From NCBI GenBank assembly GCA_044892525.1, contig CM097886.1, positions 40,610,001-40,674,000 on the forward strand: a DNA stretch of 64,000 nt, given 5' to 3'. Below the pieces are notes generated by a model that saw only the letters and a list, made by a program, of their open reading frames with translations, was not told where the DNA came from and made no database searches. The translations under genes were made by a program, and so were the position numbers. The first letter of the stretch is position 1. Each line of letters begins with the position of its first letter. Shown piece by piece: positions 7,493 to 40,400 of this stretch. Origin of the DNA: Schmidtea polychroa. Taxonomy: Eukaryota.

Positions 7493-10400
7493 ATGGTAAT
7501 TTTTCTAATTTTCTAATTATTAATTATATTTGAAATTCAGAATAAATGCAGTGGTGTTTTTAAATATATACGACAAAGAGAGCAAGGATTGATTTCTAAA
7601 TTCCGAAAAAAGCAATTAACTGTACAACAAAACCTAATTGTTAAAAACCCATCAAAAAGTGAATCAATAAACAATCTTACATTTGCGACAAATACCAAAG
7701 CATTTTTAATAGTAATGAGTATCGATAAATCCTACTTTGCAGTTGCAACATCAGAAAACTTCGTCGGAGTTTACTGTGCCATTTCTGGAGATTTATTGTA
7801 CAAATTAAATGGTTCATTATCTCCTATTTACACAATTACAGTATTATGATTAATAACATCAACATTTAGTTAAAATGCTTTTCATTAAGTGGCATCCGTT
7901 TTATAGAAACATTATTTCGTGTAGTAATCTCAATGGTAGTGTTTATCTCTGGGATATTTTTCAATGCAAACAAAACGAATGTAATTTTCAGAAAATCTGG
8001 AACTGGTCTTCATTTTCTAGTATAACCTATTCGATATGTTTTCATCCTTTTAAATCTATCATGGCACTTGCTAGGTAATTTTTTTTAATAAGTTAATATA
8101 CATTTGTCATAAAATGAAAATAATATGTCTCGAACTAATTATTAACTTTACCTTATAAATTTTGCTGAAATAAAAATTTTTTAATCATTAATTTTAACAT
8201 TTCAATAATGCACAGCTTGTTTCATATTAAAATTATAATTTAATAAAATGTAATGCAAGCCCGCAATATTTTGATTTATTATTATTAATATAAATCCCTT
8301 ATGGTCAATGGTGAGTTATAGCAAGCCAAATATGGGAGCAGATTGTTGATTTTTTTTCACATTCACCACCGAATATTTATTTTTATTCGGTAATGTTAAC
8401 CCTTTCGCTACGGGAACCAAACGAATCCGATGTATTCTAATTATGATACAGACTAATAAAATTTCTATAAACATGTCAAATATTGATTTACGAGTAGTCT
8501 TTATTTTTGTCTTGGACTATGGGAAACGTACCGATCCGCTGGCATGTTTCATCTTGTTCGTCAATGTTATGAACTTGCATGTTCACTTGCAAAAATCCAC
8601 TATCTAAAAGGTGCATTGTTTGTTCCGAAAAATGGAAAAGGAAGGAAACTCGTTACATGTGTAAAAGCTGTAACGTTTCCTTATGTGTGTTAGAATGTTT
8701 TGAAATATATCACACAACAAGCATATTTTGTAATTTTTGAAAAATTAAATTCATATTATTATGTGTTTGCGTATTGTTGGGGTTACACCTCGGCTGACCG
8801 CTCTACCATATTGACGGGTCTAAGGGTTGATTGTCCATCTCGAATAAAAGGTGCCACCGATTTGTCAACCTGGAGTGAAACCCCACATAACTTTCTTCCA
8901 ACATAGTGCCCGTGAATCACTTCACGTTGGTACTGCACTATGCAGGCGAGACGCCAGCAAGCAGGTGAGCTTCTGTCTTAAAACTACTCCTTGCTGAGGC
9001 CTCGACTTCCCATTCACGACTGCCGATGGAAGGGCTTACGTCCATTTCCTTACACAACCACTCATCAGGATTCGCTGAATGCAAACGGGGAATTTCTCAC
9101 TAGATCTTGCGGGTTCTCTACTCAACCCACTTAATTAAAGTCTAATTATTCATGAACGAAAACGTGTAAGACAACAAGATTTATTAAATTCAACGTTATG
9201 ACACAAGGATTCAGCTGTACACTTTACTAATGTTTGTCGAAAGAAGAGAAAACATCATAATCAACATAGATCGGATCCTTGTTCCTCATCCTGACCGCCA
9301 CTGGGGTTTTATTGTTTCTCCCATTCAGCGTCGGCGAATAATTCGTCGAGGTTAAAAAACTCGGAAGCGTTCTCTTCCCACGTTACTCCAGCGGCTGATA
9401 TGATTCGTGCCGAGGGTCCCGTTGTTAGGTCGATGGACACGTGAGAGTTGCCACCGTTGGTTGAGTCCTCGATTGATGGGATGTTCGGCTTTGTAGTGGC
9501 GCGCTCGCGCTGTCTCTTCTTGCGCTCTGCACGAGAGAGTTGTTTACGCTTGGGTTTGCTTGAAGATGCCACTTGCAGAAGGGTGACAGGTACAGATGGA
9601 CTAGCAGTGGGGGGCTTACTGGTACCCGTGACGACAACATCTGGTCGCTTGGGGAACAATTCGGTTTCGACGCAGTCTCGGCACGGTCTCTTGAACGGTG
9701 GAGATGGATTCGAGGAAAGGTTGTGATGAGGCGGAAAGATGTCATCGGCCTCTCGGATGGGAATCTGCACTATTTTTCGGGTTGTAGCCGCCTGCACGTA
9801 AACCTTATGCAGTGCCTCGGATTGTTCTCTGATTAGACTTCTTTGGGCACGGCTCTCAGATATTAGCGCGTCCCGGCAATGCTCGCTACGATCGAGCTTC
9901 TTTTGGATCTCCTTCATCCGAGCGGGACTAAACCATGTCCCTTCCAGCTCGTCGATTTTTCGTTTATATCGACCGATCTGGGCTTGAAGATCTTTAATCA
10001 CTGCATTTTTATCTGAGCAGGAGAAGCAGGGACGTAGAGCTGATTTGTTGTTTGATAACATATGGATGGCTAAAGAAGAAAACTATGATGACTATATCCA
10101 AAAATTTCGGATCAGATATACGGTTTATTCGCTATTGGATACTTAGTGCTGGGAGAAAACAAGACGAGTCGACGAAACAGGATCCCTCCCTTCACCCTTG
10201 ATTACTAATATTTTACGTATCCTTTACAAAAATTATTCCTCAACGCCCTGATTGCTTCCCTGACGAATGCAAATTATTTGTAAAAATTTTAATTTTCGTC
10301 TGTCGCGTTCGAGTTGGATTTCTATCTATCGCACATAACGGCAATTGACGGATTGGTTCATGCCGGAGTGAATAAACCTATTTCATTACAAATACACTAT

Positions 10401-37400: not shown

Positions 37401-40400
37401 TTCTGACCGGATGGCGCTACTCATAGTTATGTTAGCAGTATGTCTGTATGTACGGGTGCCTGTTCGATGGAAATTTTATCTGTAACTATCAACCGTACTG
37501 AGCGAACTGCAAATGTTACATCGCGTGTCGATTCCCATCTGAGCTTATGATGTTGGATTTATTTACTACGACTCGTAATTTCCTCAACATTGGATGTTTT
37601 TGAACGATGGGAGATCTCTACGAACCAGCCAACTAGACTCTATGAAGCATATTTCAGTAGTGGATATTTCGACGCAACAGCATGAAAATTATTCAATGGG
37701 TATTACCAGATTTTGTTAATATATGTGATTGAATACAGTATTATTGTGGTTTTATGTTTTATTTTTCCCTTATTGTAAATTCCTCATCATATGCTAGGAT
37801 TTGGATGTCGCATCTGAAAGAGATGACCTAAATTAGATTTACTTTTTCAAAAGTCTACCGAATGCAATTTCAACTTCTCGATATGTTGGAAAACCCAGCG
37901 ATGGATGTTTAATGGTATTTTCCCCCACATGGTAAGTTCGGATTTATAGACAGAAGTGGCATGAATGTCTTATAAGACGACTCTGGACAATACAGAGTTA
38001 ATATGAGAACTCCCTCAGTCGCTGTGAAGCACATATCCTATTTTCGAAAATTTCATAAGGTTTCCTTTCGGTCTAGATTTCGGTACTCTGACAGATTTTA
38101 AGTCCTTCAGCAATTGGACCCGTGAAGAAGCCTTCACATTTCGGCCCAATCTAGCTGCGTGATTGAAATACTCCATGTCCACCGGCTGAGCTCCCGAAGG
38201 CACCTCATACCATGACATGGAGTATCTCAACTCCACGTTACTCGTTAATATTAGAAATCATAAAACTATCACTTCAAAATAAATATCCATAAAAATTATG
38301 TAAGAGTTCACCTGTTACCAACACATACTTTTAAACATTTAAATTATTTACTTTATCAAAATCGTTATTCAGGATCAAATGAAAAGAGAGTCTGTTTAAA
38401 TTTAAAAGTTTAATTGCTCATTAAATATACACATTTACTATTAACTTCGAAAAACAATATCATAAATAAAAATCCCTTACTATGGAATTAGGCTGAATCG
38501 GAAAATTAACGTTAGTCGTTCCAAATTAGTCTGATGATGGTTCGTCGAACGTCGATTGCTGTGACTGATTTCGAATTGCTGTGAAGTTTTTCGAATTAAC
38601 TGTTGCTCTACTTGTATTGCTGATCCTTGAAATAAGTCTCCGTGAGTTGTAGATGTCTATGAAATGCTCGGGGTTAACAGTAAATTTAATGTTTTTGGTA
38701 GTTGTATATATATCAAATTCTTATTCGTGCGGACCAATCAGAGTTGAGTACCGCTTATTTCTATTAATTTAATATAATTTTCTTGTTTTTAGGTTGTTTT
38801 CTCCTTATTTTCTTTATTTTTAATATGTTTTTCTATTTATTTCCTTAATTTCCTTATTATTTCTTGAATTCCTCTTTATTTATTTGTCAACTTGTTCTAT
38901 TTTAATCTTTTCTTAATTTTATTTTTTGTTTTAATTCTTATGTCTTAATTATTATTTTCCTTATACCTTATTCTATTTTATTTCTGATTTTATTTATTTT
39001 ATTTTTATTTTTCTTAATGTTCTACTTCCCTACTTTCTTATTTTTCAACGATTAAATTTTCGACTCAGCCCAACAGTATTATTTTTATAATTTACCATAT
39101 AAATCCGCACGGCCGTTTGCATGCCGTACTGAGACGCAAATTATGCAAAAGCACCCCGTAGCGAAATGGTTAATGGTGCGTTTTTCCGTTATAACTCTAT
39201 TGAGCTATTTTTGATATGTTATTTCGAATTATGAATTATGAAGGATTCTATGTGAACATGTTATTGTAGAGATCGGGAGATCCGTTTTATTGATTGGGAA
39301 AAAGGCATTCATATTGCCTATTGGAGATTTTTTTCTGAATTTTCATGGACTCCTTGGGTTTCGTGGTCATTTGTTGGTAACAGTCTCATTGCATCTGTCG
39401 GAAATCCGCAATGTGATTGTGTTCTCAGTTCAGTGATCGAAACTATAAAAATAGGTATAATAATATTAATAATAATAATAATAATAATAATAATAATAAT
39501 AATAATAATAATAATAATAATAATAATAGCAAATAATTAATAAAAAATAATTATTGTAATAATAAAAATTAATAAAAAAAATTATAAAATATTTATAATA
39601 ATAATTAATAAAAAAATAATTATTTTAATAATAATAATAACAATAATTAATAAATAATAATTATAAAATATTTATTATAATCATTAATAAAAAAATAATT
39701 ATAAAATAATTTTTTAATAATAGTATTTATTATATAATAATAATTTTAATAATAATAATAATAATAATAATAATAATAATAAATGAGGTTTTAAAAAATA
39801 TTGATAATCCCCTTCTGACAATTATCATGAATTTACTGTATTTGGAAGATAACTTCAAAAATGTGAAAACTAAATCAAATTCTAAAGAAAACTAGCTTCA
39901 AAGTTTTTGACTCTCATCGATACCATGTATAAAACTCGATCCCACCTGGGATCAAACCCAATGAATTTGCGACCAGACTCCTTAACCCTTTCATTCGGGA
40001 ATTAATTCTGTGGGTAAATTAATTATCTAGACCATCAAACCTAGTAAGGGGACTCAAATTATGCAAAAAAATAAAAAAATAATTTAATTATTAAAATGTA
40101 CTAGAACAAATTTCAATTTTCTTAAAAAGTACTTCTCACATTATATTTTCGAAAAGGTACAACAGATATTCAGCACACAAAACTGTGTACAATATATTGT
40201 ACACTCCGTATAAAAGGGTTAATCTGACCACTCCGCTACCAAAAAAAATTGAATATCACAATATAAAATACTTATAAATAAATACATTTAATAAATCATC
40301 ATCCAAAAATCAAAAACCATTTAGAAATTTGCGAATTATTATTTAATATTCATAAAAGAAATGTTTTTGGTACGTGTTGAAATTTTATTTACACATTCCA

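Follow-up and report, generated by a model that had tools for sequence, protein, structure and literature searches.

The largest long terminal repeat (LTR) retroelements described are the Burro elements of dugesiid planarians (PMC6431247). They exceed 30 kb and carry accessory open reading frames (ORFs), and the published group includes Burro1 (GYPSM1), Burro-2 to Burro-4 and an element of Dugesia tigrina (PMC6431247). Here we describe an element in a 64,000-nt stretch of Schmidtea polychroa DNA (assembly GCA_044892525.1, contig CM097886.1, positions 40,610,001 to 40,674,000; this whole stretch is called the window). The element occupies positions 8775–39075 of the window. With high probability it is an intact, recently inserted copy, 30.3 kb long, from a Ty3/Gypsy family of the Burro type that is present in many copies; it encodes a Gag-Env-Pol polyprotein and seven accessory genes, likely still replicates via tRNA-Pro and likely passes from cell to cell via a class III envelope glycoprotein (Env).

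The first ORF of Burro1, 4,873 amino acids (aa) long, was reported to contain Gag, MATH, ubiquitin/SUMO-like and BCL2-like domains and an env in frame before protease (PR), a dUTPase-like domain, reverse transcriptase (RT), integrase (IN) and ankyrin repeats (PMC6431247). The provirus nature of Burro elements was put forward there as a hypothesis, and env was assigned by homology to gypsy Env together with mononegavirus hits (PMC6431247). The text of PMC11410931, as far as available to us, mentions Burro a single time. GAG-ENV-POL elements with an env of the glycoprotein B (gB) type are listed for nematodes, bryozoans and flatworms, six of them from Schmidtea mediterranea (PMC13524379). The supplementary table of that work gives the LTRs and primer tRNA of the Schmidtea elements as ‘none’, and its main text does not contain the word ‘accessory’ (PMC13524379).

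Structure of the element

Self-BLAST of the window aligned the LTRs at 8775–12884 (3′ LTR) and 34966–39075 (5′ LTR) over 4,110 nt with one mismatch and no gap, the sole difference being C at 8858 versus T at 35049. The element totals 30,301 bp and lies on the minus strand, as do the features given below unless indicated. The LTRs have TG...CA ends, and the element reads GTAT-TGTTGGG at one end and CCCAACA-GTAT at the other, that is, a 7-bp terminal inverted repeat within a 4-bp target-site duplication (GTAT at 8771–8774 and 39076–39079, unstranded). A 5-bp duplication was ruled out, as 4 bp are duplicated in the window copy and in 10 of 10 other copies. The GC content is 33–42% within the element versus 21–32% in the flanks.

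The primer-binding site (34941–34958) starts 7 nt internal to the end of the 5′ LTR and is complementary in 18 of 18 nt to the 3′ end, with CCA, of tRNA-Pro(TGG), a gene for which is present in the same genome. A polypurine tract before the 3′ LTR is usual in Ty3/Gypsy elements, although not universal. None was found here, the longest purine run in the last 60 nt being 4 nt. Where the tract would be expected (12885–12930), a motif of about 40 nt with a small inverted repeat is conserved in three lineages (the window copy, L037 and L048), with a longest purine run of 3–4 nt.

Eight distinct ORFs were found on the minus strand: one of 4,617 aa, one of 161 aa upstream of it, five of 119, 462, 351, 232 and 222 aa downstream, and one of 250 aa in each LTR. 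The preliminary description had claimed an intact 30.3-kb element with 4,110-bp LTRs differing by one substitution, a GTAT duplication, a primer site and an unbroken 4,617-codon ORF with seven further ORFs on the same strand, at least eight genes altogether, and all of this was recovered. Its term ‘endogenous retrovirus’ holds only in the loose sense in which it is used for Metaviridae and errantiviruses. The element has the Ty3/Gypsy (Metaviridae) features of TG...CA LTRs, target-site duplication, tRNA primer site and the order PR-RT-RNase H-IN. The strict sense of Retroviridae, with the order gag-pol-env and a class I env, does not apply, since env precedes pol and is of class III.

A 75-bp tandem repeat of 6.6 copies (33042–33531, unstranded) lies in the leader. 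ORFs on the plus strand are also present within the element, for example at 33580–34020. Genes for tRNA-Pro(TGG), the primer tRNA, lie in a 475-bp tandem array (L001–L004; G000:C1:130.9 Mb), and the T-arm pattern of this tRNA has 2,164 matches genome-wide.

The Gag-Env-Pol polyprotein

The 4,617-aa ORF (17933–31786) matched Pfam families in the order Gag, Monjiviricetes fusion glycoprotein, PR, RT, RNase H, IN and ankyrin. Its catalytic motifs are intact in the translation: DTG in PR, YIDD in RT and D-D35-E in IN, together with three CCHC knuckles. The Gag capsid and the knuckles (30881–31633) were identified by Retrotrans_gag (aa 52–145, E 3.1e-9) and zf-CCHC (aa 252–302, E 7.7e-10). Protease lies at 24323–24598 (RVP, E 3.2e-8; DTG at aa 2411), and RT with RNase H at 22607–23659 (RVT_1, E 1.2e-35; RT_RNaseH, E 6.3e-39; YIDD at aa 2817). 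Integrase, with an HHCC finger and the D-D35-E core, was located at 21767–22285 by Pfam (Integrase_H2C2, rve) and by translation. Ankyrin repeats follow at 19613–20863 (aa 3642–3721 and 4019–4058; Ank_2, E 1.1e-17), and hydropathy predicts a C-terminal type I membrane protein (18071–18949) with hydrophobic segments at aa 4280–4304 and 4545–4572.

The region between Gag and Env, modelled at a predicted local distance difference test (pLDDT) value of 46, gave weak Foldseek matches to Bcl-xL and ubiquitin folds. Up to three putative ubiquitin-like units (28100–29809) are suggested by a Pfam ubiquitin match at E 0.043 and by Foldseek matches to TINCR and ISG15 (probability 0.97–0.99, E 0.4–0.6); BLAST detected no similarity of the three to one another. 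A helical domain before Env, followed by a hydrophobic stretch (27032–27601), may be BCL2-like (best Foldseek E to Bcl-xL 0.07). For this region there was no PDB sequence match at a useful E value and no Atlas match, and VIA-align gave generic helical matches only (Z up to 9.2). Both assignments are weak in this element.

Comparison with Burro and other enveloped Gypsy elements

Several features of the Burro group recur in the element: a length of about 30 kb or more with LTRs of several kilobases; a single ORF in the range of about 4,600–5,100 aa, whose Env stands in frame after a Gag with three CCHC knuckles and ahead of PR-RT-RNase H-IN and ankyrins; accessory ORFs as well as tandem repeats; cargo of the TRAF/MATH and RING kinds; and a high copy number (PMC6431247). 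A second family in the same genome, hereafter the sister family, provides a close relative. We located one of its copies at G000:C1:203.51–203.56 Mb, read as separate stretches (L045–L048, L075–L076). It has LTRs of about 4.8 kb that differ by one substitution and two gaps, an AAGG duplication, the same tRNA-Pro primer site and a 4,791-codon frame with an in-frame MATH domain. Its accessory set comprises RING, A, TRAF, BIR-RING (IAP), B and C, with a further ORF of 328 aa, and homologues of RING, A, TRAF, B and C stand in the same order in the window element. With its in-frame MATH domain and BIR-RING gene, the predicted layout of the sister family matches that published for Burro1.

A quick RT tree was calculated from 40 sequences (the window element, the sister family and 38 of 132 fetched proteins, none of them a named reference for Burro, Ogre, Mag or Osvaldo). 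The window element and the sister family, 88.6% identical in RT-RNase H, paired with support 100. Both grouped with one further Pol and with gag-env-pol polyproteins from four metagenome or metagenome-assembled genome (MAG) records, P0001–P0004 (Shimodaira–Hasegawa-like approximate likelihood ratio test 97). The latter likewise hold Gag, a Monjiviricetes-type env, PR, RT, RNase H and IN in one ORF, but they are 2,627–3,865 aa long, 54–57% identical in RT-RNase H and without ankyrin matches. The same layout is found in P0008 of the nematode Panagrolaimus, which differs in having a long branch apart from this group and an RT-RNase H identity of 34%. The named ones among the best 120 matches were Pol proteins of the Ty3-G/412 type. 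P0003 is labelled as a protein of a Flavobacteriaceae MAG; as a gag-env-pol retroelement polyprotein, it is likely a eukaryotic contamination.

From this layout and kinship, the element is very probably of the Burro type. By comparison of its predicted proteins with the published description, it is not Burro1 itself. The polyprotein of Burro1 has 4,873 aa versus 4,617 here; its MATH domain lies in the first ORF, whereas Pfam finds none in the 4,617-aa ORF and MATH is encoded here in a separate downstream TRAF gene; and a BIR gene is reported there, whereas none of the eight ORFs of the window element has a BIR match in Pfam (PMC6431247). The spacer between PR and RT, where Burro1 has its dUTPase-like region, is without a Pfam match here. 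In the Dugesia tigrina element MATH is placed in an upstream ORF, unlike the downstream TRAF gene found here, and for the Burro Env homology to gypsy Env was cited in 2019 along with mononegavirus hits (PMC6431247), whereas that of the window element scores as class III of the gB/chuvirus type. Judged by the published description, the element is probably a new member of the Burro group, and its architecture is already in print.

The novelty that had been proposed for this architecture is therefore largely lost: giant size, long LTRs, a gag-env-pol ORF, cargo and accessory ORFs have been published for Burro (PMC6431247), and the GAG-ENV-POL layout with a gB-type env is listed for S. mediterranea (PMC13524379). 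Smed_errantivirus_1 to 6 resemble the window element in having a gB-type env between gag and pol of a Ty3/Gypsy element (PMC13524379). Judged by eye, none is identical to the window env; that of Smed_errantivirus_5 is the closest of the six listed, with shared runs such as YQESDFIRT (PMC13524379). Relative to the published description of Burro, we add exact LTR ends, the tRNA-Pro primer, the 4-bp duplication, more than a hundred very young copies, selection on accessory genes and, for the accessory cassette, an RNA signature kept in three lineages.

In outline, the element also works like complex retroviruses: further genes follow the core ORF, the LTR contains an ORF of its own, and the cargo is presumably host-modulating; the LTR ORFs of lentiviruses and of mouse mammary tumour virus are such parallels. 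It differs from them in its Ty3/Gypsy-like Pol, a class III env before pol, and one polyprotein without a frameshift. Foamy-like endogenous retroviruses of fish, complex retroviruses with accessory genes, are cited in PMC6431247.

Copies in the genome and age of the family

An RT search of the animal's own genome yielded 13,146 first-look candidates, of which 125 were scored. All 125 were 98–100% identical to the window RT. In 59 of them the RT falls within a frame of 4,732 codons, as in the window copy, and in 66 the frame has at least 4,700 codons. The exact junction of LTR end and primer site occurs 113 times in the genome and the 22-nt LTR end 166 times. Both LTRs were compared in a further 10 copies, which came from the highest-ranking LTR pairs, a set biased towards the window LTR type. 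The pair was identical in six copies, differed by one substitution in two and by two substitutions in two; each copy had its own flanks and its own 4-bp duplication, and its LTRs differed from the window LTR by 42–99 substitutions. These data establish a young family of over a hundred near-identical copies, and they bear out the recent insertion that had been proposed from the window LTRs.

LTR identity or even element structure might arise from collapsed repeats in the assembly. Polishing may homogenise near-identical repeats, and among the short contigs covered none spans the element. Against such an artefact, each copy carries its own LTR variant at both ends with its own flanks and duplication, and a spacing of about 26 kb between paired LTRs recurs on four contigs. 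The self-consistency of the LTR pairs, together with the separate flanks and duplications, makes assembly collapse unlikely and favours a history in which several source copies gave rise, repeatedly and recently, to new insertions. We regard an artefact as extremely improbable.

Whether the family still moves is a separate matter. It might have been active recently and now be silenced, its copies being intact only through youth: 59 of the 125 scored copies have broken frames of less than 4,700 codons, and intactness dates the burst but says nothing on present activity. Identity of the LTRs over 4.1 kb in 6 of the 10 other copies speaks against silencing, as does the finding of several lineages and mosaics, all young. 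A silenced family is accordingly rated as rather unlikely, and the sequences make present activity probable. That the window copy is ‘probably still competent’, as first proposed, is a fair inference from the intact motifs and the 66 full frames among 125.

The mosaic lineages have an RT at least 98% identical to that of the window element, combined with different LTR ends. Their accessory ORFs show 52–82% identity in L037–L039, and in the others (L040, L041, L044, L070–L073) single ORFs are about 82% identical to those of the window. This pattern suggests recombination between families. At two loci, copies stand head to tail with one common LTR, which joins the 3′ end of one internal region to the 5′ start of the next: L056 (G000:C2:177.70–177.71 Mb) and L057 (C4:46.26 Mb).

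The envelope glycoprotein

The predicted class III fusion glycoprotein of the gB/chuvirus type (25169–26935, aa 1618–2206) matched the Pfam family Monjiviricetes_fusion at E 2e-70. A furin-type REKR at aa 1862, a transmembrane segment at aa 2169–2206 and 14 ectodomain cysteines are retained. Distant relatives with the same layout have Env homologues of 33–38% identity. With Env alone as query, no homologue of 336–1,071 aa was found, relatives surfacing only as long polyproteins, and the Env sequence had no match in PDB. An AlphaFold model was built from five sequences. Nearly all PDB structures listed by Foldseek for this model were herpesvirus gB (best E 9e-8; 94 matches at E ≤ 0.001), with one baculovirus GP64, and the best viral structure matches were chuvirus-like glycoproteins (E 8e-24). 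By its modelled fold, Env is a predicted class III fusogen.

Ty3/Gypsy elements are transcribed from LTR to LTR, reverse-transcribed from a tRNA primer and integrated with a short duplication. In the window element, reverse transcription would be primed by tRNA-Pro and is likely still ongoing. The polyprotein may enter the endoplasmic reticulum by means of a signal peptide that lies within it, immediately ahead of Env. In the resulting topology Gag would be cytosolic and the Env ectodomain luminal, and PR-RT-RNase H-IN would remain on the cytoplasmic tail of Env until cut off by the protease. Because Pol would be attached to the Env tail, packaging of the enzymes would be coupled to the envelope. 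The class III Env would then let particles enter other cells, and the sequence features lead us to favour, with some reserve, a real cell-to-cell step.

Alternatively, the element may be a purely intracellular retrotransposon, with no cell-to-cell step, in which Env has no other task than to fix Pol and nascent particles to membranes, or is a relic. Since Env is in frame with Pol, it could be retained for that alone, and provirus status is a hypothesis in the Burro description (PMC6431247). However, the whole ectodomain with its 14 cysteines, furin-type site and transmembrane segment has been kept, Env homologues persist in the distant relatives mentioned above, and in its modelled fold Env corresponds to a class III fusogen. 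A purely intracellular element appears less likely than not.

Several points nevertheless count against this account of the element as a whole. The Env model is of low confidence (pLDDT 52, predicted TM-score 0.34), with TM-scores of 0.2–0.3 in the comparisons; the putative signal peptide ahead of Env, at about aa 1600–1617, was read by eye and falls below the hydropathy cut-off; the BCL2-like and ubiquitin-like assignments are weak; and the end lacking a polypurine tract offers no account of plus-strand priming. The locus makes it testable whether a gB-enveloped Gypsy element still moves in a stem-cell-rich regenerating animal.

Accessory genes and selection

Upstream of the polyprotein lies a RING-finger ORF of 161 aa (34138–34623) with an IAP-type RING at its end and no BIR (zf-C3HC4_3, E 6.5e-11). 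Downstream follow ORF A (119 aa, 17413–17772), a TRAF-like gene of 462 aa (15939–17327) with RING, zinc-finger region and MATH domain (TRAF-mep_MATH, E 2.9e-27; MATH_2, E 3.3e-27), ORF B (351 aa, 14690–15745), ORF C (232 aa, 13822–14520) and ORF D (222 aa, 13113–13781). ORF B is likely a coiled coil, as is the charged ORF C, and for D a signal peptide and one transmembrane segment (aa 126–151) are predicted. The LTR ORF encodes the same 250-aa protein at 9309–10061 and 35500–36252. Neither this ORF nor A and B had a Pfam family; Atlas matches of the LTR ORF were all under 0.9, and C gave a sub-threshold coiled-coil match only. A, B and C have homologues in the sister family.

Selection was assessed by the ratio of non-synonymous to synonymous variation (pN/pS), counted from distinct codon variants among copies without transition correction, for which the neutral level is about 0.5. 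The values were 0.14 for the RING ORF (12 of 14 stretches matched), 0.22 for the LTR ORF (10 copies) and, from 16–17 of 17 copies, 0.18 for A, 0.12 for TRAF, 0.14 for B, 0.11 for C and 0.36 for D. Of the 20 copies fetched, three divergent ones had been excluded; including them gave 0.10–0.13 and 0.36. The polyprotein tail gave 0.13, and two non-coding controls read as coding gave 0.57 and 0.47, with many more frame-breaking indels. Six accessory ORFs (pN/pS 0.11–0.22, well below the controls) are therefore under purifying selection. D is marginal, not being clearly under the controls, which weakens the case for seven functional accessory genes; a 211-aa homologue exists at the same position in a divergent lineage.

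TRAF expansion has been reported in planarians (PMC6109357). In a genome-wide search for MATH domains, counted by eye, 123 of the 150 best matches lay in frames of more than 600 codons, most often 4,791. Gene counts of MATH and TRAF in such genomes are inflated by Burro-type elements, mostly by the sister-family polyprotein. Single-exon TRAF genes also occur outside Burro elements (L049, L051, L052, L053); they encode 442–467 aa and are 27–31% identical to the TRAF of the element.

A conserved motif in the spacers of the accessory cassette

Five spacers of 40–193 nt (647 nt in all) separate the downstream ORFs (13782–17932). The sense strand of the element carries 12 instances of TGTA.ATA, a motif like the Pumilio element, and 11 of these fall into the five spacers, versus a mean of 0.57 in dinucleotide shuffles (0 of 2,000 reached the count). 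In the lineage with 52–79% identical ORFs the spacers hold nine motifs versus a shuffle mean of 0.74, and in the sister family eight versus 0.78 (0 of 2,000 in each). A motif lies within 40 nt past the stop codon in 4/5, 4/5 and 6/6 spacers of the window copy, the divergent lineage and the sister family, respectively. Its distance to the upstream stop is fixed at 14–27 nt; that to the next start is not. In addition, an acceptor-like AG precedes most starts: a pyrimidine-AG within the last 9 nt was found in 4/5, 4/5 and 4/6 spacers (8, 10 and 19 of 2,000 shuffles). The four TRAF genes outside the element have no motif within 70 nt past the stop.

The Pumilio response element is UGUANAUA (PMC5758885). 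The accessory genes might be translated from subgenomic RNAs spliced, in cis or in trans to a spliced leader, at the AG before each start, and the UGUANAUA clusters past the stops would bind host PUF proteins. On the sequence evidence, spliced subgenomic RNAs under PUF control are a tentative proposal. The cargo, made up of TRAF, RING and putative ubiquitin-like and BCL2-like parts, would weaken the innate signalling of the host and hold back cell death. Two points tell against the spacer signature: the motif was chosen from the window copy, so that only the two other, mutually related lineages test it, and the element has eight antisense matches to TGTA.ATA. RNA contigs from four runs over 12901–32900 contain no joint at the candidate acceptors; such contigs are uninformative as to strand and level and do not demonstrate absence.

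The cassette could also be operon-like or separately promoted, with TGTAAATAAA serving each gene as a poly(A) signal or as a TATA- or forkhead-type promoter motif rather than as a PUF site. Several of the motifs overlap AATAAA, and the spacer lengths fall inside the spacing of under about 300 nt known from flatworm operons that are resolved through spliced-leader splicing (PMC12582326). One sister-family spacer (L048:2495–2631) has a run of about 37 A directly after a TGTAAATAAA motif, possibly a poly(A) scar or the result of slippage. On the other hand, TGTATATA, which does not include AATAAA, accounts for 6 of the 11 motifs in the window copy; cleavage within the cassette would come at the expense of genomic RNA of full length; the fixed distance is that to the upstream stop, not to the next start; and planarian poly(A) sites have been reported without UGUA (PMC5068929). 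We regard this organisation as possible but doubtful. For the same published reason, a reading of UGUA as a site for cleavage factor Im (CFIm) was dropped.

In its broadest form, the proposal would make Burro elements live enveloped retroviruses of invertebrates with herpes-like fusion, accessory genes expressed through their own splice acceptors (possibly with a spliced leader, as a viral operon) and PUF elements, and plus-strand priming without a polypurine tract. This combination is speculative and, taken as a whole, improbable; if true, the PUF elements would make expression of the cargo depend on whether a cell is in a stem-cell or germline state. A narrow literature search found no published account of Pumilio-type UGUANAUA motifs after the stops, acceptor-like AGs before the starts or the lack of a polypurine tract. 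With this locus it becomes testable by what route seven additional genes are expressed from an LTR element.

Flanking sequences

The flanks of the element contain (ATA)n and (AT)n microsatellites at 39457–39782, 55934–55981 and 57796–57865, the first about 380 bp from the insertion. A broken remnant of a hAT-type DNA transposon, with pieces of zf-C17orf113, DUF4371 and Dimer_Tnp_hAT, lies at 50509–52860 of the window.

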